Source: Candidatus Omnitrophota bacterium (GTDB taxonomy: Bacteria; Omnitrophota; Gorgyraeia; Tantalellales; Tantalellaceae). From it: DNA of 53,856 nt. Position numbers and translations under genes: made by a program. A model generated the notes under the pieces. It saw nothing but the letters and a program-made list of their open reading frames with translations, did not search any database and was not told the origin of the DNA. Of the stretch, positions 26,547 through 53,634 are shown piece after piece (within the stretch, counting starts at the first letter, position 1; each line of letters opens with the position of its first letter). The stretch covers positions 1-53,856 of the forward strand of contig JBDRIH010000065.1 in the NCBI GenBank assembly GCA_043816025.1, in the 5' to 3' direction.

Positions 26547-26574
26547 ATTATACATTTCCCCGAACTTAAATCAA
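26547..26574 (-). promoter_or_regulatory. Putative thyX promoter (TTGATT-16-TATAAT)
   Basis: The minus strand reads ttgatt taagttcggggaaatg tataat. The boxes lie at 26569-26574 and 26547-26552. Confidence 0.4.
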
Positions 26575-26580
26575 CGTTTT

Positions 26581-26717
26581 TAACCTCGCCAGCGGAAAGG
26601 CGGGTTGGGCTGTTCCTACCAGGGCCCCTCCGCCCGGTGTGGATCCTCCCTGTACGGAACAACCCAACCCGCCTTTCTAACCTGCCAGACCTAACCTGGT
26701 TAGATTTGGCAGGTTAA
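26581..26717. repeat. Mosaic repeat locus L3: P half-arm, H rod (B-type stem), full P palindrome
   Basis: taacctcgccag lies at 26581-26592. H lies at 26596-26676 with the stem ggcgggttgggctgttcc/ggaacaacccaacccgcc. The P palindrome ctaacctgccagacctaacctggttagatttggcaggttaa lies at 26677-26717. Confidence 0.85.
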
Positions 26718-26734
26718 CATCCTTGGGGTTCTCT

Positions 26735-27002
26735 TAGACAAAACGGATCTGAGGCCTTTGGAGTGAATTGCGATTTTAGCTTCTTTTTATAGCTTTTGAG
26801 GGACAAAGTGTTAAATATGTTTGACGAGCCCTGAACTATAGTTCGGGGCGAGGAGTTATTTAACACCCCTCAAAAGTTAGAAAAAAAGCGTTAAGAAATC
26901 GCTTCTGAACGAAACCGTGCAAGCCCACGAAGGCCATAAGAAGGTTCCCTGGATAGGAGTTAACGCATCGTCAGGAAAAAGGCCTCAGATCCGTTTTGTC
27001 TA
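26735..27002 (+). mobile_element. M2-A: 268-bp non-coding element with perfect 22-bp terminal inverted repeats (MITE-like)
   Basis: The TIR is tagacaaaacggatctgaggcc (26735-26756) and ggcctcagatccgttttgtcta (26981-27002). It has nested internal hairpins and a second copy at 49588-49853. Confidence 0.75.
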
Positions 27003-27012
27003 TGCAACACTC

Positions 27013-27041
27013 TTGACATATCTTTTGACCCATACTATAAC
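27013..27041 (+). promoter_or_regulatory. Putative promoter (TTGACA-17-TATAAC) 9 nt upstream of the GHL10 ATG
   Basis: ttgaca lies at 27013-27018 and tataac at 27036-27041. There is no SD before the ATG at 27051. Confidence 0.4.
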
Positions 27042-27050
27042 TATACTGTC

Positions 27051-28256
27051 ATGCCTAAAAAGAACATACTCCTGACTGCCCTTATCTTCCTCTGGTTCTC
27101 CGCCACCTTATGCCCCGCCGGCATATCCGATGTTCCTTCAGGTGGAAACCCGCGTCTCGGTGTCTGGATAACTGTCTTCTCCCCGGAAAAGGTATTGTAC
27201 TCAAGAGAAAACGCCGGCCGTTTGATCGAGTGCTGCAAAAAATCAGGTATAAACGATATTTATATCCAGGTCTACAGGGCCGATAAGGCCTATTATAATT
27301 CCGATATAACCGACAGGACGGCTTATGAAAATATAATGTCTGAGGCCGGCGAAGACACGCTTAAATATCTGATCGACCGGACGCGCGTTCAAGGCATCAA
27401 AGTCTACGCCTGGCTGAATCTGCTGAGCATAGCCCAAAACAAAGACGCGAATATACTTAAAAAATTCGGCGAAGAGGTTCTTGCGACGGACCAGTACGGA
27501 AGGTCTTCCATGCAGACGGACAAGAAGGATGAGCTGGATAAGTACTATATGCGCGAAAACCAGATCTTTCTGGAACCCGGTGACCGTCGCGTAAGAGAAT
27601 ACCTGGGGAGCATAACGGAAGAAATCGTTACAAAATATCCCGGTCTGGCGGGTGTGCACTTTGACTACATTAGATACCCCGCAGTTGTGCCTTTTGTTCC
27701 GGGGTCAAGATTTACCCCGTACGGTATAAATTATGGTTACAGCGCTTCTAACTTAAAAAGTTTTAAAGAAGCAACCGGTCTGGACGCAAAAACTATGGAA
27801 CGCTCGCGGGAAAACTTCAGACTGTGGGACGACTGGCGCAGAGATGCGATAACCCGCCTTGTGCGTGAGCTGTCCGAACGCGTGAGGGCTTCCACAAACT
27901 CCATGGAGGTCTCCTGTACGATAGTTCCTTCAATAGAAAGGGCATATTTCGTCACGTTCCAGGACTGGACCGTGTGGCTGCGTAAAGGATACGCCGACTA
28001 TGTCGTCGCCATGAACTACACTGACGACGCTAAGCTTATGGAACTAAACTCTGGTTCGCTGCTACTACCTGGCCTGGATGACAAAATACATATCGGTATA
28101 GGCGCGTACCTTCTGAAAGAGAGGCCCGACCAGATCAAGTCCCAGCTTATATCTTTACGGGAACTTTCCCCCGCTGGTGTGGTCATCTTCTCTTATGATG
28201 ATATAGCGGGAGATAAAAAACTTCAGGATTTTCTGGCGGAGAACTTCAAAAATTAA
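27051..28256 (+). CDS. Glycoside hydrolase-like family 10 (GHL10/YngK-like) secreted protein
   Basis: Has a signal peptide, the VHFDYIRYP hallmark and a TIM-barrel-like length of 401 aa. Confidence 0.7.
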   Translation: MPKKNILLTALIFLWFSATLCPAGISDVPSGGNPRLGVWITVFSPEKVLYSRENAGRLIECCKKSGINDIYIQVYRADKAYYNSDITDRTAYENIMSEAGEDTLKYLIDRTRVQGIKVYAWLNLLSIAQNKDANILKKFGEEVLATDQYGRSSMQTDKKDELDKYYMRENQIFLEPGDRRVREYLGSITEEIVTKYPGLAGVHFDYIRYPAVVPFVPGSRFTPYGINYGYSASNLKSFKEATGLDAKTMERSRENFRLWDDWRRDAITRLVRELSERVRASTNSMEVSCTIVPSIERAYFVTFQDWTVWLRKGYADYVVAMNYTDDAKLMELNSGSLLLPGLDDKIHIGIGAYLLKERPDQIKSQLISLRELSPAGVVIFSYDDIAGDKKLQDFLAENFKN

Positions 28257-32180: not shown

Positions 32181-32284
32181 CTAACCTGGTTAGATCTGTC
32201 AGGTTAGGCCGTTTGTCATGCTCCGTACAGGGAGCGGAGGGGCCCTGGTAGGAGTATGGGAAACGGCCTATATTGTCAGGTTAG
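32181..32284. repeat. Mosaic repeat locus L4: P half followed by an inverted, tip-deleted H rod flanked by an 11-nt direct repeat
   Basis: ctaacctggttagatctgtcaggttag lies at 32181-32207. H lies at 32208-32268 and reads ggccgtttgtcatgctcc gtacagggagc ggaggggccctggta ggagtatgggaaacggcc. tgtcaggttag occurs at both 32197-32207 and 32274-32284. Confidence 0.85.
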
Positions 32285-33436: not shown

Positions 33437-33658
33437 CCAGACACTTTCAAAGTAGCAGATTAGTTCACAGAAGTACCGCCTGATGTGGTGGGTATGTCCG
33501 AGCACGGTGTAAAGTTATCTTCCCCATGGGATAAAAATAATTTACACTTCTTTGAATATACTACACCTGAAGTATGCTAATAAAAAAGATAATTTTACAG
33601 CGCGCGCAGGATATGCCTATCACATCAGGCAGCTTCTTCTCTGGGATAAACTATAACC
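33437..33658. repeat. M3 copy 1: ~220-bp long-hairpin repeat immediately 3' of the lipoate ligase gene
   Basis: It is about 85% identical by eye to 34397-34616, at a constant offset of 957 bp. Internal inverted repeats are cctgatgtg (33479-33487)/cacatcagg (33621-33629) and tgtaaagttatctt (33508-33521)/aagataattttaca (33586-33599). Confidence 0.85.
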
Positions 33659-34396: not shown

Positions 34397-34616
34397 CCCA
34401 GCTCCAGTGTAGCGGATTAGCCTACGGGAGTATCGTCTAATGTGATGGGTATGTCCGAGCACGGTGTGAAGTTATCTCCCCCATGGGATAAAAATAATTT
34501 AAACTTCTTTGAATATACTACGCCTGACGTATGATAATAAAAGAGATAACTTTACAGCGCGCGCAGGATATGCCCCTCACATCAGACAGTTTCTTCTCTG
34601 GACTAAACTGTTACCC
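34397..34616. repeat. M3 copy 2: ~220-bp long-hairpin repeat between gcvPB stop and the lipoate ligase start
   Basis: It is colinear with 33437-33658. Its last 6 nt overlap the gcvPB stop codon region. Confidence 0.85.
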
Positions 34617-39038: not shown

Positions 39039-39169
39039 GATTTCGCTGCGCCTTCGGCTTGCGGCCCCTTCTGTGCTAGCCGTGCAAGCGCGCACGGTGT
39101 CCTGACCACATAAATAACTCGCTAAGAAGTCAGGGAACCTTCTCATAGCCTTCGCAGGCTCACACGGTT
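39031..39169 (-). repeat. Two Y-family modules (Y-variant 39031-39101, Y 39118-39169)
   Basis: The minus strand reads aaccgtgtgagcctgcgaaggctatgagaaggttccctgac, matching 26912-26955 and 49656-49700. The sequence gacaccgtgcgcgc...agaaggggcc...aaatcttgacaag matches 44136-44201. Confidence 0.75.
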
Positions 39170-39170
39170 T

Positions 39171-39299
39171 CTAACCTGCCAGAGATAAGGTGGGTTGGGC
39201 TACTCCTACCAGGGTCCCTCCGCCCGGTGTGGGAGGCTCCCTGTACGGAGTAGCCCAGCCACCTTGCTAACCTGACACATCTAACCTGGTTAGATCTGG
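39171..39299. repeat. Mosaic repeat locus L5: P arm, H rod (B-type stem), P palindrome overlapping the lipA stop
   Basis: ctaacctgccaga lies at 39171-39183. H lies at 39187-39265 with the stem aaggtgggttgggctactcc/ggagtagcccagccacctt. ctaacctgacacatctaacctggttagatctgg lies at 39267-39299. Confidence 0.85.
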
Positions 39300-44022: not shown

Positions 44023-44069
44023 ACAGATCTAACCAGGTTAGTTTAACCTGGTTAGATCTGGCAGGTTAA
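44023..44069. repeat. Mosaic repeat locus L6: P module alone with 2 tandem units
   Basis: The sequence is acagatctaaccaggttagtttaacctggttagatctggcaggttaa. Confidence 0.85.
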
Positions 44070-44084
44070 GCTTAAACCGAGCCC

Positions 44085-49371: not shown

Positions 49372-49471
49372 ATCGGCACACCCCTCCCACTTCATAATAT
49401 TTAACTGGATCAAAGATATTATCACACAAAATAGAACACACCTCAAGCCTAGTTTTTCGGCTAAACTAAGA

Positions 49472-49545
49472 GTCGTTTGACATACTCCTACCAGGGCCCC
49501 TCCGCCCGGTGTGGATCCTCCCTGTAGGTAGCTTGGCAAACGACT
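49472..49545 (+). repeat. Mosaic repeat locus L7: H rod (A-type stem, gatcc-type core) without a clear P module
   Basis: The sequence is gtcgtttgacatactcc taccagggcccctccgcccggtgtggatcctccctgtagg tagcttggcaaacgac. Confidence 0.85.
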
Positions 49546-49587
49546 CTAATCTGCAATGCTCATGTCAGAACATGACTTTTCATCTAC

Positions 49588-49853
49588 GAGAAAAAATGGA
49601 TCTGAAGCCTTTGAGTGAATTGCGATTTTAGCTTCTTTTTATAACTTTTGAGGGAAACCGTGCAAGCTCATGAAGGCTATAAGAAGGTTCCCTGGATAGG
49701 AGTTAACGAATTGCCAGAAAATAGTGTTAAATATGTTTGACGAGCCCTGAACATAGTTCAGGGTGAGGAGTTATTTAACACCCTCAAAAGTTTGAAAAAA
49801 AGCGTTAAAAAATCGCTTCTGAACGAGAAAGGTTTTAGATCCATTTTCCCTAG
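49588..49853 (+). mobile_element. M2-B: second copy of the ~265-bp TIR element, with internal blocks in a different order
   Basis: The degraded TIR is aaaatggatctgaagcc (49593-49609) and ggttttagatccatttt (49831-49847). The Y block lies at 49656-49721 and precedes the hairpin block at 49722-49826. Confidence 0.75.
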
Positions 49854-49866
49854 AAAAAAATGGCTG

Positions 49867-51006
49867 TTATGAGAGGCGGTTGCGGTAATCTTCGTACTGG
49901 AATTGGCGAACAACGCGGATCTTGCCACTGTCTGGATCATAAAGGGCGATCGACGGCAGACGCACGCCGTTGAAGGTATTGTTTTTGACCATGGTATAAT
50001 GGGCCATGTCCATGAAGGTGAGACGACTTCCCACCTCAAGCGGTTCGATAAACGAATAATCGCCGATAACATCACCGGCTAAACATGTCAACCCGCCGAG
50101 CCTGTACGTATGGGCATATTCGCCCGGCTGCCCCGCCCCAGCGATCTCCGGACGGTATGGCATCTCAAGGACATCTGGCATATGGGCCGCGGCAGAGGTA
50201 TCCAAAACAGCTATATCCATCCCGTTATGAACTATATCCAGCACGGACGCCACGAGAACGCCAGTATTCAGCGCGATGGCCTCGCCGGGTTCCAGATAAA
50301 CTTCCACATCATATCTTTCCCGGAACGCGTTTACCAGTCGAGAAAGTCTGTCCACGTCATAATCCGGACGCGTGATATGGTGTCCGCCCCCAAAATTGAC
50401 CCATTCCATCTGCCTCATGAAAGATCCAAACTTCTGCTCCACCACTTCTAGCGTGCGCTCGAGAGAATCGGAATTCAGCTCACAGAGTGTATGAAAATGC
50501 AGCCCCGTGATGCCGTCCAAATCCTGTCCTTCAAACTGATCCATCTTTATGCCGAGCCGGGAGCCCGGGGCGCAAGGATCGTAAAGGGCGACCTTTACCT
50601 CGGAATGTTCCGGGTTGATGCGCAGTCCGCAGCGCACCTCTCGGCCAAGACGTGAAACGACCGGTTTGAAGCGCTGCCACTGTGAAAAAGAGTTAAAACT
50701 GATATGGCTAGCGTAACGGATGAGTTCGAGGAACTCATCGTCCTTGTATGCCGGAGCGCACACGTGTACGTCGCCTCCGAATTCCTCAAAACCAAGTCGG
50801 GCCTCGTCCAGTGAACTTGCCGCGATCCCGGAAAGATAACGCTTGATGAGCGGAAACGTACCGAACATGGCGAACCCTTTTAGGGCCAGAATGATCTTGC
50901 AGCCAGTTCGCCGCTGGACTTCCGATAGTATCTCCAGGTTTCGCGTAAGTAATCCCTCATCAACGACATAGCATGGCGTGGAGGGAACTTTTGAAGCTAT
51001 GTTCAT
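49867..51006 (-). CDS. nspC: Carboxynorspermidine/carboxyspermidine decarboxylase
   Basis: 379 aa, PLP-decarboxylase fold III-like, containing ALKGFAMF, HFHTLCE and NFGGGHH. It is adjacent to the dehydrogenase partner gene. Confidence 0.85.
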   Translation of the reverse strand: MNIASKVPSTPCYVVDEGLLTRNLEILSEVQRRTGCKIILALKGFAMFGTFPLIKRYLSGIAASSLDEARLGFEEFGGDVHVCAPAYKDDEFLELIRYASHISFNSFSQWQRFKPVVSRLGREVRCGLRINPEHSEVKVALYDPCAPGSRLGIKMDQFEGQDLDGITGLHFHTLCELNSDSLERTLEVVEQKFGSFMRQMEWVNFGGGHHITRPDYDVDRLSRLVNAFRERYDVEVYLEPGEAIALNTGVLVASVLDIVHNGMDIAVLDTSAAAHMPDVLEMPYRPEIAGAGQPGEYAHTYRLGGLTCLAGDVIGDYSFIEPLEVGSRLTFMDMAHYTMVKNNTFNGVRLPSIALYDPDSGKIRVVRQFQYEDYRNRLS

Positions 51007-52768: not shown

Positions 52769-52809
52769 TTAACCTGACAGATCTAACTTGGTTAGATTTC
52801 GCAGGTTAG
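52769..52809. repeat. Mosaic repeat locus L8: P palindrome alone, with the right arm inside the hydrolase CDS
   Basis: The sequence is ttaacctgacagatctaacttggttagatttcgcaggttag. Confidence 0.85.
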
Positions 52810-53634
52810 AAACGATCTTATGCCCTCGATAAACTGCTTTTTAGAGTCTAAAAAGGCCGTGTTGTGGGTACCTCTTATCCTGAGAAAGGTCTTCGGCTGG
52901 GCCGCCTCGCTAAAAAGCTTCTCTCCCAGGTTAAAAGGAACGATCTCGTCATCCACGCTATGAATGATCAGTTTTGGACAGGCAACGTTTCTTATCTTAG
53001 AGGTAACATCAAACCTGGACGAAAAAACATAATGCGGTATAAACGGATATGCAATTTTTGCCATATCCTTGATGGACGAGAAAGTCTCTTCCGTAATCAA
53101 GGCCCGCACGTTCAGTTCTTGCGCGAGATTAACCGCAACGGCACCTCCTATGGATTCCCCGTAAAGAACGATATCTCCTTCGGCAATTTTGCGTTCTATC
53201 CTAAGATAATCATATGCCGCTTTCACATCTCTATACAAACCTGCCTCGGTCGGTACCCCCGTGCTCTTGCCGTAGCCGCGGTAATCAAAAACAAATACAT
53301 TCATTCCGAGGTTGTGCAATATCAGCACCTTTTCCAGCCTATGACTGATATTCCCGGCGTTGCCATGGCAGAAGACCAGCGTGAGCTTCCCCTGGCTGTT
53401 AGCGATAAACCAGCCATTCAGCCGTTTATTGTCGGATGTCTGGAAAGAGACCTCCTCGAAGGGAAGACCCACCAGTTCAGGCGTAGCGGTAATCTCCCGC
53501 ATCGGAAAATATATGCTGCGTTTTTCGATATACCTTACCGCGATCAGAAAAAGAGCGATAAAAACAACCAGCCATAAGAGTAAATTCACTTTTTCTCCTT
53601 TAGTTTTATAAGCGCGCTCCTTGCGGCGACGCAT
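52792..53634 (-). CDS. Alpha/beta hydrolase with N-terminal membrane anchor
   Basis: Contains HGNAGN and the nucleophile elbow GESIGG, plus a C-terminal D/H region. Confidence 0.75.
   Translation of the reverse strand: MRRRKERAYKTKGEKVNLLLWLVVFIALFLIAVRYIEKRSIYFPMREITATPELVGLPFEEVSFQTSDNKRLNGWFIANSQGKLTLVFCHGNAGNISHRLEKVLILHNLGMNVFVFDYRGYGKSTGVPTEAGLYRDVKAAYDYLRIERKIAEGDIVLYGESIGGAVAVNLAQELNVRALITEETFSSIKDMAKIAYPFIPHYVFSSRFDVTSKIRNVACPKLIIHSVDDEIVPFNLGEKLFSEAAQPKTFLRIRGTHNTAFLDSKKQFIEGIRSFLTCEI

Follow-up and report, generated by a model that had tools for sequence, protein, structure and literature searches.

Strand-specific folding in M2, a lineage of class-wide, gene-less long-hairpin repeats in Omnitrophota

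The M2 element represents a lineage (M2-alpha) of gene-less long-hairpin repeats that occur throughout a class of Omnitrophota bacteria. Two copies, A and B, lie in the stretch of DNA analysed here (the window, 53,856 nt), which is contig C65 of a 1.28-Mb metagenome-assembled genome (MAG) with 103 contigs and 48% GC (G000). A sister lineage, M2-beta, is present in the same genome. These repeats are constrained in structure in a strand-specific manner, are gained and lost at gene junctions, and accept inserts at unpaired sites of their fold. In our view, M2 is probably a non-autonomous kind of mobile DNA that is recognised as a folded single strand. The original prediction, made from the window alone, proposed either a MITE (miniature inverted-repeat transposable element) that carries a structured RNA or small RNAs that form a family and spread by transposition. 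A gene-less, dispersed, multi-copy element with a strand-specific conserved fold, present or absent at orthologous junctions, is indeed what we observe; the anatomy of a MITE is not.

Single-sequence folds of 26 copies from seven genomes converge on one architecture, a rod of six helices in the order P1-J1/2-P2-bulge-P3-P4-bulge-P5-loop-P6. P1 is a variable outer helix of 17–28 bp that the original prediction had taken for a terminal inverted repeat (TIR). It is followed by J1/2, a symmetric internal loop with the class-wide consensus GAGCGA on both strands, which can be drawn as G.A, A.G, G-C, C-G, G.A and A.G pairs. In G000 the two strands read GAGUGA and GAACGA, such that U-A replaces the central C-G in a compensatory manner. 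P2 ends in UUUU/AAAA and is separated from P3 by a bulge in which a single A lies opposite GUUAA. A 5-nt, A-rich bulge on the 5′ side follows P4 and leads into P5, beyond which an internal loop of the form UGA(C)GA-G ... C-GAG(GA)G is capped by P6, a variable apical hairpin. The tandem G.A loop UGA-G...C-GAG at this position is a conserved unpaired motif of the apex. Apical domains are swapped between M2 copies, and a form with a three-way junction at the apex (for example, C48:58–265 and loci L046, L062 and L160–L170) is the common low-copy type outside the Genome Taxonomy Database (GTDB) family of G000. The canonical unit measures about 190 nt without the 65-nt block (B65) described below, with a family range of about 170–230 nt. 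A hammerhead or K-turn reading of CUGACGAG...GAGGAG was discarded, as this motif is lineage-specific and the general form is a tandem G.A beside a GC stem. An intrinsic terminator was also rejected: A-rich and U-rich flanks accompany the alpha copies of G000 but not the copies of other lineages.

Pairing in this rod is maintained by selection. A covariance model called R1, built from eight copies (186 positions, 66 pairs), was used to align 26 sequences from the same GTDB family (alignment A4) and 21 sequences from other families, none of which had been used in building the model (alignment A6). In A4, in which the fit to R1 somewhat inflates pairing as it does in A6, 95.2% of cells pair, compared with 69.8% in column shuffles (0 of 500 reach the observed value) and roughly 42–54% when partners are slid, and 56 of the 66 pairs have changed on both sides; in A6, 91.4% of cells pair versus 58.1% in shuffles, with double changes at 60 of the 66 pairs. 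Despite the model-fitted alignments, there is little doubt that the pairing is under selection, given how large the effect is and how far below it the slid controls fall.

It is the fold of one strand that is kept, by compensatory substitutions in all helices. R1 scores its best copy at 214 bits on the plus strand versus 82 bits on the minus strand. Wobble pairs (G.U and U.G) outnumber A.C and C.A mismatches by 109 to 23 in a mixed set from the family, by 122 to 10 in genome G042, by 22 to 2 in genome G059 and by 28 to 14 in the class set. In an alignment-free comparison, the fold of the model strand surpasses that of the reverse complement in stability by 7–11 kcal/mol, and does so in 20/20, 39/41 and 12/12 copies. 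The excess of G.U pairs falls on the same strand of the element whether that strand is sense (G042) or antisense (G059 and the class set) to the flanking genes.

In the window, the parts of the two copies and the fragments related to them are placed as follows, with H and P denoting two neighbouring hairpin families that are treated further below and minimum free energy abbreviated as MFE.

26735–27002, plus strand: M2-alpha copy A, the whole rod including its B65 insert (from the inverted repeat, MFE and R1)
26735–26759, plus strand: 5′ arm of P1 in copy A, the left 'TIR' of the original prediction, pairing 25/25 with 26978–27002
26760–26769, plus strand: 5′ strand of J1/2 in copy A, GGAGUGAAUU, the conserved G.A loop (from comparison with the class consensus)
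26770–26910, plus strand: core of copy A, comprising P2–P6 and most of the 3′ strand of J1/2 (from alignment to R1; compensatory change in all helices across genomes)
26778 (A), 26803–26807 (the A-rich ACAAA) and 26890–26894 (GUUAA), plus strand: conserved bulges in the core of copy A
Within 26770–26910, plus strand: apical loop in the core of copy A, UGACGA...GAGGAG
26911–26974, plus strand: B65 insert of copy A, in the 3′ strand of J1/2 directly before the 3′ arm of P1
26978–27002, plus strand: 3′ arm of P1 in copy A
49588–49853, plus strand: M2-alpha copy B, the whole rod including its B65 insert (from R1 and MFE)
49593–49612, plus strand: 5′ arm of P1 in copy B, pairing with 49828–49847 through 18 Watson-Crick and 2 G.U pairs
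49654–49717, plus strand: B65 insert of copy B, located at the A-rich bulge that separates P4 from P5
49828–49847, plus strand: 3′ arm of P1 in copy B
49551–49583, minus strand: what is left of the 5′ arm of an M2-beta copy, facing copy B head-to-head (from its match to that arm in reverse complement)
39131–39171, minus strand: partial B65 outside any M2 element, beside a P arm
26595–26716, plus strand: H hairpin (26595–26677) and P palindrome (26678–26716) upstream of copy A, which are separate families and not M2

The nested hairpins proposed for both copies are borne out by folding energies far below those of dinucleotide shuffles (200 per copy). Copy A reaches an MFE of −115.8 kcal/mol (z = −10.5) and copy B reaches −91.4 kcal/mol (z = −8.4), and in neither case is any of the 200 shuffles as good. 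R1 scores copy A at 167.7 bits on the plus strand versus 41.7 bits on the minus strand, and copy B at 115.5 versus 37.3 bits. As had been noted, the differences between the apical helices of the two copies keep pairing only when read as plus-strand RNA, in which they form U.G and G.U wobbles. The second copy was also correctly located at 49588–49853, with identities to copy A of 94%, 93% and 86% block by block, and no open reading frame (ORF) of note lies inside the element.

The supposed TIR takes on a different meaning in light of this fold. Copy A is bounded by a perfect inverted repeat, as claimed, and this repeat extends over 25 nt (26735–26759 and 26978–27002) rather than 22. Compared with the genome consensus, read directly, four pairs of P1 in copy A have changed and all four are compensated on the 3′ arm, such that 25/25 remain paired; in its inner helices, the only changes are single ones to G.U. 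Copy B's outer helix, which had been called degraded, pairs 20/20 on the plus strand with two G.U wobbles. Rather than a conserved end for transposase binding, P1 is the most variable and fastest-changing part of the element, and is kept only as a helix: its sequence is wholly different between lineages while pairing is retained. Within G042 alone, the arms of P1 read GCGCAAGCGGG/CCCGCTTGCGC, GGCATAAGGGA/GCCCTTATGCC and GGATAAAGGGA/TCCCTTTATCC, among others, and their pairing runs on for 4–11 bp into the apparent flank. An outer stem derived from the target, through insertion into existing palindromes, was rejected, as all alpha copies of G000 and all copies of genome G023 share their own P1 at different loci. 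At three loci of G042 (L083, L087 and L131; for example, G042:C38:25400–25900), one M2 lineage (AAAACTGTATGCC...) lies within the outer arms of another (GTACAAGTGGATAT...) whose core it replaces; upstream of these nested loci are TGTGTAATG/TGTGTTATG repeats in tandem, along with a tandem repeat of 33 nt.

The window copies had also been described as carrying the same internal blocks in rearranged order. The 65-nt block does occupy differing places, following CUGAAC in copy A and lying between P4 and P5 in copy B. However, each is an ordinary copy with a separate small insert, and their block order differs because B65 has entered at a different place in each. Seven alpha copies are colinear units of about 190 nt that lack B65, and the block is found outside M2-alpha on C99, C15, C24 (at 11039) and C47 and at 39131–39171 in the window. 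Three M2-beta copies (C99, C24:11039 and C15) carry it at the same structural site as copy B, the A-rich bulge between P4 and P5. In copies A and B and in these three copies, B65 starts with GAAACC, and GAAA or GAWA follows its end; in copy A it is bounded by GAAA at 26911–26914 and 26975–26978. B65 is a separate small module that has been inserted independently into unpaired sites of the fold.

The suspicion that the difference in block order is an assembly artefact of a repeat-rich MAG draws on the division of the genome into 103 contigs, some of which end inside repeats (C69:43484, C10:37 and C48:58). We regard this as highly improbable, because the three M2-beta copies elsewhere carry B65 at the site used in copy B. 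Moreover, both window copies lie well inside a 53.9-kb contig, each insert has GAAA at its boundaries and leaves the fold intact, and unrelated inserts occupy the same unpaired sites in other relatives (C35, L018 and L023).

A genome-wide blastn search had been proposed as a check for further copies. Together with R1 it yields about 11 copies of M2-alpha in G000, not just two, and R1 finds 8 copies of M2-beta (about 90 bits). In addition to the pair on C65, the alpha copies lie at C62:5048–5249, C24:13397–13595, C24:11160–11356, C69:40687–40883, C69:43355 to the contig end, C3:21821–22016, C10:37–236 and C35:7340–7572, along with a variant at C48:58–265 that keeps the ends and has a different apex. 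At six loci, M2-beta stands head-to-head with an alpha copy at a distance of 10–40 nt. A promoter-like 'U module' seen beside alpha copies was dismissed when it proved to be the reverse complement of the M2-beta 5′ arm.

Beyond G000, R1 detects M2 in 19 of the 54 genomes and 17 of the 43 genera of the same GTDB family. There are 1–41 copies in each, with the highest match counts in G042 (41), G059 (18), G022 (12) and G008 (11), counts that include some reverse-strand hits to the same locus. A search across the class, with stricter filters, finds the element in 26 of 251 genomes from 12 other families, mostly at 1–4 copies. When the window and 15 loci from other families were searched against Rfam 15 with gathering and E-value thresholds, only tRNA reached threshold, and the best sub-threshold hits were hairpins of miRNA precursors with E > 0.1. 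A literature search returned no paper linking Omnitrophota to such repeats. M2 apparently belongs to an undescribed class-wide family of gene-less repeats.

All M2 copies are intergenic, and comparison of orthologous junctions indicates that they come and go. The copy at G042:C131:31091–31275 is absent from the orthologous junction in the congeners G001 and G041, where the genes are about 10–25 nt apart; G042 has about 270 extra nt at this position, and its filled site carries about 95 nt beyond the hairpin. A second orthologous locus exhibits the same trend of absence. Copies are missing from the congeners' junctions, and therefore the element moves. In G024, which belongs to a different genus, an alpha/beta pair is 82–94% identical to the G000 copies, P1 included, beside a gene (108 residues) whose protein is 58% identical, which suggests horizontal transfer or mis-binning. 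Also in G024 (L002, G024:C8), a 168-nt segment at 1436–1603 that contains the end of gpsA and a tRNA-Pro is 96% identical to G000:C45:32765–32932, with the next gene at 58% in protein, and the rest of gpsA is missing from G000. To judge from these sequences, a recombination or integration boundary may exist at that tRNA.

M2 has no conserved gene neighbour in general. The exceptions are queA, with a related copy 5–7 nt after its stop codon in G155 and G078, which represent two families, and fhs, in the two congeners G107 and G163; G000 carries M2 at neither gene. Orientation between genes that share a direction is strongly biased within lineages, and the direction of the bias is opposite between lineages while the folding strand remains constant. 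Thus, 23 copies are sense and 3 antisense in G042, compared with 0 and 7 in G059 and 2 and 14 in the low-copy class set (loci L156–L175). The sense copies of G042 end 13–80 nt before the next start codon, and in the class set the 3′ end of the element typically lies 5–30 nt from the stop codon of the preceding gene. Flanks read by eye for promoter-like motifs and U-tracts contain no conserved promoter-like motif upstream and no consistent U-tract. The lack of an upstream motif and the flip in orientation argue against a simple small RNA gene, and the flip also argues against a simple cis-acting RNA in operon transcripts and, equally, against a single rule of replication strand.

At the window copies themselves, a promoter scan reported nothing for the plus strand. 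Copy A is upstream of a candidate thyX promoter at 26547–26574 on the minus strand and of a promoter-like site, TTGACA-17-TATAAC at about 27011–27039, that was read by eye; the scan is silent on this site because the second hexamer lacks its final T. The site ends about 11 nt before an ATG at 27051 and, if real, would mean that the mRNA has a very short leader or none at all. A distance of 14 nt separates the 3′ end of copy B from the stop codon of ORF 49867–51006 on the minus strand, to which the copy is antisense.

A search for an enzyme that mobilises M2 points to other hairpins. RAYT-like Y1_Tnp genes are present in 48 of the 54 family genomes, compared with M2 in 19, and all M2 genomes except G006 have one. 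The only Y1_Tnp gene of G000 (about C27:4750–5312) is flanked on both sides by P palindromes (TAACCTGGTTAG... and TAACCTGGTTAGAT...; C27:4650–5346) rather than M2. P also occurs in the window at 26678–26716, 32181–32206, 44027–44070 and 52769–52812, and P doublets lie directly upstream of five alpha copies. By analogy with the classical arrangement of a REP-associated tyrosine transposase (RAYT) gene flanked by its repetitive extragenic palindromes (REPs), P is probably the REP partner of the Y1 gene in G000. Tiny GIY-YIG genes of about 80–140 codons are likewise found in nearly all family genomes. The one such gene in G000 (94 codons, C37:9414–9698) is flanked by a different hairpin, GTCATYCCGAGCGA, and not by M2; inverted hairpins bracket it at C37:9360–9776 (GTCATCCCGAGCGAGG... 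/ ...TTCGCTCGGAATGAC). A similar hairpin (GATTGCTTC...GCAATGAC) is located directly downstream of many M2 copies in G042. G059, with 18 M2 copies, has only one weak GIY-YIG match (E 8.5e-7), and no tiny GIY-YIG gene was detected there. The reverse transcriptase domain RVT_1 is absent from the high-copy genomes G000, G042, G059, G022 and G008, and a retroelement-derived repeat (retron, group II intron or a repeat like a short interspersed nuclear element (SINE)) was rejected because the amplified genomes have no reverse transcriptase.

The original prediction had also called for an autonomous insertion sequence (IS) that shares the 22-bp ends. None is found in this assembly, and fuzzy motifs for the 5′ and 3′ halves of M2, searched over the whole assembly, return no more than the short copies already known. 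The repeated unit of G042 and of G023 reaches past the hairpin; that of G042 takes in a TGTGTWATG microsatellite on the upstream side and, downstream, a GATTGC...GCAATGAC hairpin.

In the mechanism that we consider probable, M2 would multiply as non-autonomous mobile DNA, and a putative trans-acting, structure-specific protein would recognise its folded single strand by way of the GUUAA bulge and the conserved G.A loops, in copying as well as in whatever effect there may be on the host. We lean towards single-stranded DNA (ssDNA) as the active form, with an RNA hairpin in read-through transcripts as a possible side effect, because the folding strand is independent of the transcription of neighbouring genes, no promoter was seen, and copy A is upstream of both flanking promoter candidates. 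Several observations weigh against this proposal. No mobilising enzyme could be tied to M2 among the Y1_Tnp, GIY-YIG, reverse transcriptase and IS-end candidates examined, and the presence of Y1_Tnp and tiny GIY-YIG genes is uninformative because both are near-ubiquitous in the family. No target duplication was evident in the flanks inspected in G000, G042 and the class set, and the outer helix has ragged rather than sharp ends. Tandem G.A loops and tolerance of G.U pairs are classic features of RNA, although they are also found in DNA hairpins and are not decisive. Many lineages keep only 1–4 copies. Finally, G107 and G163, of the same genus, have an M2 copy 7 nt after the fhs stop codon with a scaffold that is 95–96% identical, compared with 86% for the fhs coding sequence; in these copies two P1 pairs have changed in a compensatory manner and the apical hairpin is entirely different. 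This conservation at fhs and the persistence at low copy number suggest that the repeat is not purely selfish but has a selected function, which it may exert as RNA.

These last observations, together with very strong covariation, conserved non-canonical loops, G.U pairs far in excess of A.C, retention across the class and the sense orientation of 23 of 26 G042 copies shortly before start codons, are what would be expected if M2 were a functional family of structured RNAs, acting in cis in operon transcripts or transcribed independently, with the G.A loops and the GUUAA bulge as sites for an RNA-binding protein and with amplification as a secondary, SINE-like property. We take this alternative seriously but judge it the less probable one. 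The folding strand is antisense to both neighbours in G059 and in the class set, and copies there often sit so close to a stop codon (5–30 nt) and to the next gene (8–40 nt) that there is no room for a promoter of their own. Nor is there a conserved upstream motif in the flanks, a position of copy A downstream of either promoter candidate, or a match in Rfam, and bursts in copy number, empty orthologous sites and nested insertions are characteristics of mobile DNA. A further model would make the rod a substrate or product of a mechanism undescribed for bacterial repeats, in which a structure-specific protein reads the GAGCGA/GAGCGA loop and the GUUAA bulge on one strand. The low-copy form with a three-way junction, which occurs in at least 12 families and is more conserved than neighbouring coding sequence, would then be a functional element that repeatedly serves as the source of amplified lineages (alpha, beta and the 41-copy lineage of G042), in the way that a cellular RNA gene gives rise to SINEs, and orientation bias would reflect directional, strand-aware insertion. 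We offer this model tentatively and hold it to be rather unlikely.

A classical MITE, which would have arisen by deletion from a DDE-type IS and be mobilised in trans by a TIR-binding transposase, would account for the perfect inverted repeat of 25 bp that bounds copy A, the multi-copy, intergenic occurrence of an element without an ORF, and the orthologous site that is empty in relatives. Such an element should keep its ends, but the ends of M2 are its least conserved part and are wholly different between copies of one genome (G019 and G042) and between genera. In addition, nowhere in the assembly are 5′ and 3′ halves separated by an ORF, inspection reveals no target duplication, the repeats of G023 and G042 run on past the hairpin, and conserved asymmetric bulges and strand-specific G.U pairs are unexpected in a substrate of a transposase that acts on duplex DNA. 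This origin is therefore very unlikely.

Non-autonomous mobile DNA with a recognised single strand, the reading that we favour, can also be compared with described repeat systems. M2 is not a classical MITE, a REP or REPIN, an ERIC (enterobacterial repetitive intergenic consensus) element, an attC site, an NTS repeat or a member of any Rfam family. A MITE classically has TIRs around a core and target-site duplications, lacks a transposase gene and is related to an IS (PMC3184786). M2 shares with MITEs the lack of coding capacity, the presence of multiple copies and the contrast between filled and empty orthologous sites; unlike those of a MITE, its ends pair but vary between copies and genera while the interior is conserved, and the assembly contains no ends of a parent IS.

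In behaviour, the nearest analogue of M2 is ERIC, also called the intergenic repeat unit (IRU), of Enterobacteriaceae and Vibrio, a 127-bp imperfect palindrome that is usually listed as a MITE with TA duplication (PMC3184786). Like M2, ERIC elements are long, imperfect intergenic palindromes without a known transposase whose copy number varies widely among relatives. Wilson and Sharp reportedly described in 2006 longer ERIC variants that arise through insertions of about 70 nt at internal sites, and are said to have proposed structure at the RNA level. M2 differs in its length (170–230 nt), its phylum, its tandem G.A loops and GUUAA bulge, its one-strand fold, the lack of a visible TA duplication, and outer and apical helices that are fully variable and yet covary. 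Set apart in this way by description rather than by direct sequence comparison, ERIC shows no sign of kinship to M2.

REPs, REPINs and bacterial interspersed mosaic elements (BIMEs), which are associated with RAYTs, resemble M2 in forming hairpin repeats within mosaics at gene junctions and in placing structure over sequence. However, a REP has 20–40 nt and carries a conserved tetranucleotide at its 5′ end, and a REPIN is an inverted doublet of REPs, whereas M2 forms one six-helix rod of about 190 nt. P, not M2, flanks the Y1 gene, and no correlation between the presence of Y1 and of M2 was seen, in a comparison that the near-ubiquity of Y1 makes uninformative. NTS/SRM hairpins occur in hundreds of small copies that are read as ssDNA by Ssn, a GIY-YIG nuclease that is tiny and acts at specific sites (Chenal et al. 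2025, PMC11893778). The likeness here lies in hairpin repeats and in the tiny GIY-YIG genes common in this family, but NTS repeats are short and the GIY-YIG gene of G000 is flanked by a hairpin other than M2. With attC sites M2 shares structure over sequence, a strand-specific single-strand hairpin, conserved extrahelical bases and a variable terminal structure. The sizes of attC sites range from about 57 to 141 nt. M2 is longer than this, and its copies are scattered beside housekeeping genes in both orientations instead of lying in cassette arrays. A reading of M2 as attC was rejected on direct inspection, as boxes resembling GTTRRRY and RYYYAAC occur in reverse order relative to attC.

Other repeats in and around the window form families of their own. 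H hairpins at 26595–26677 and 49466–49546 adjoin both M2 copies; they share an identical 41-nt core, CCTACCAGGGCCCCTCCGCCCGGTGTGGATCCTCCCTGTA, between wholly different paired outer stems, and H gives dozens of blastn hits in G000. The reported adjacency of M2 and H thus holds at the two window loci but not as a rule, since other copies have a P palindrome or M2-beta upstream. The window also contains a 207-nt direct repeat (33452–33658 and 34409–34615; 87% identity, offset 957 nt); this is another long-hairpin family, as it is not matched by R1.

The bacteria of Omnitrophota have small genomes and are uncultured, and to our knowledge nothing is known of their non-coding repertoire. M2 joins traits that are usually separate, namely covariation as strong as that of a good riboswitch alignment and the bursts, empty sites and nesting of mobile DNA. 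In practical terms, M2 repeats interrupt MAG assemblies, with contigs ending at them, and they may be misread as regulatory leaders or MITEs. If ssDNA is the active form, the family indicates that mobilisation by the reading of structure goes beyond REP-RAYT and NTS-Ssn; if RNA is, M2 would constitute a new, widespread class of structured RNA with tandem-G.A loops that bind protein.

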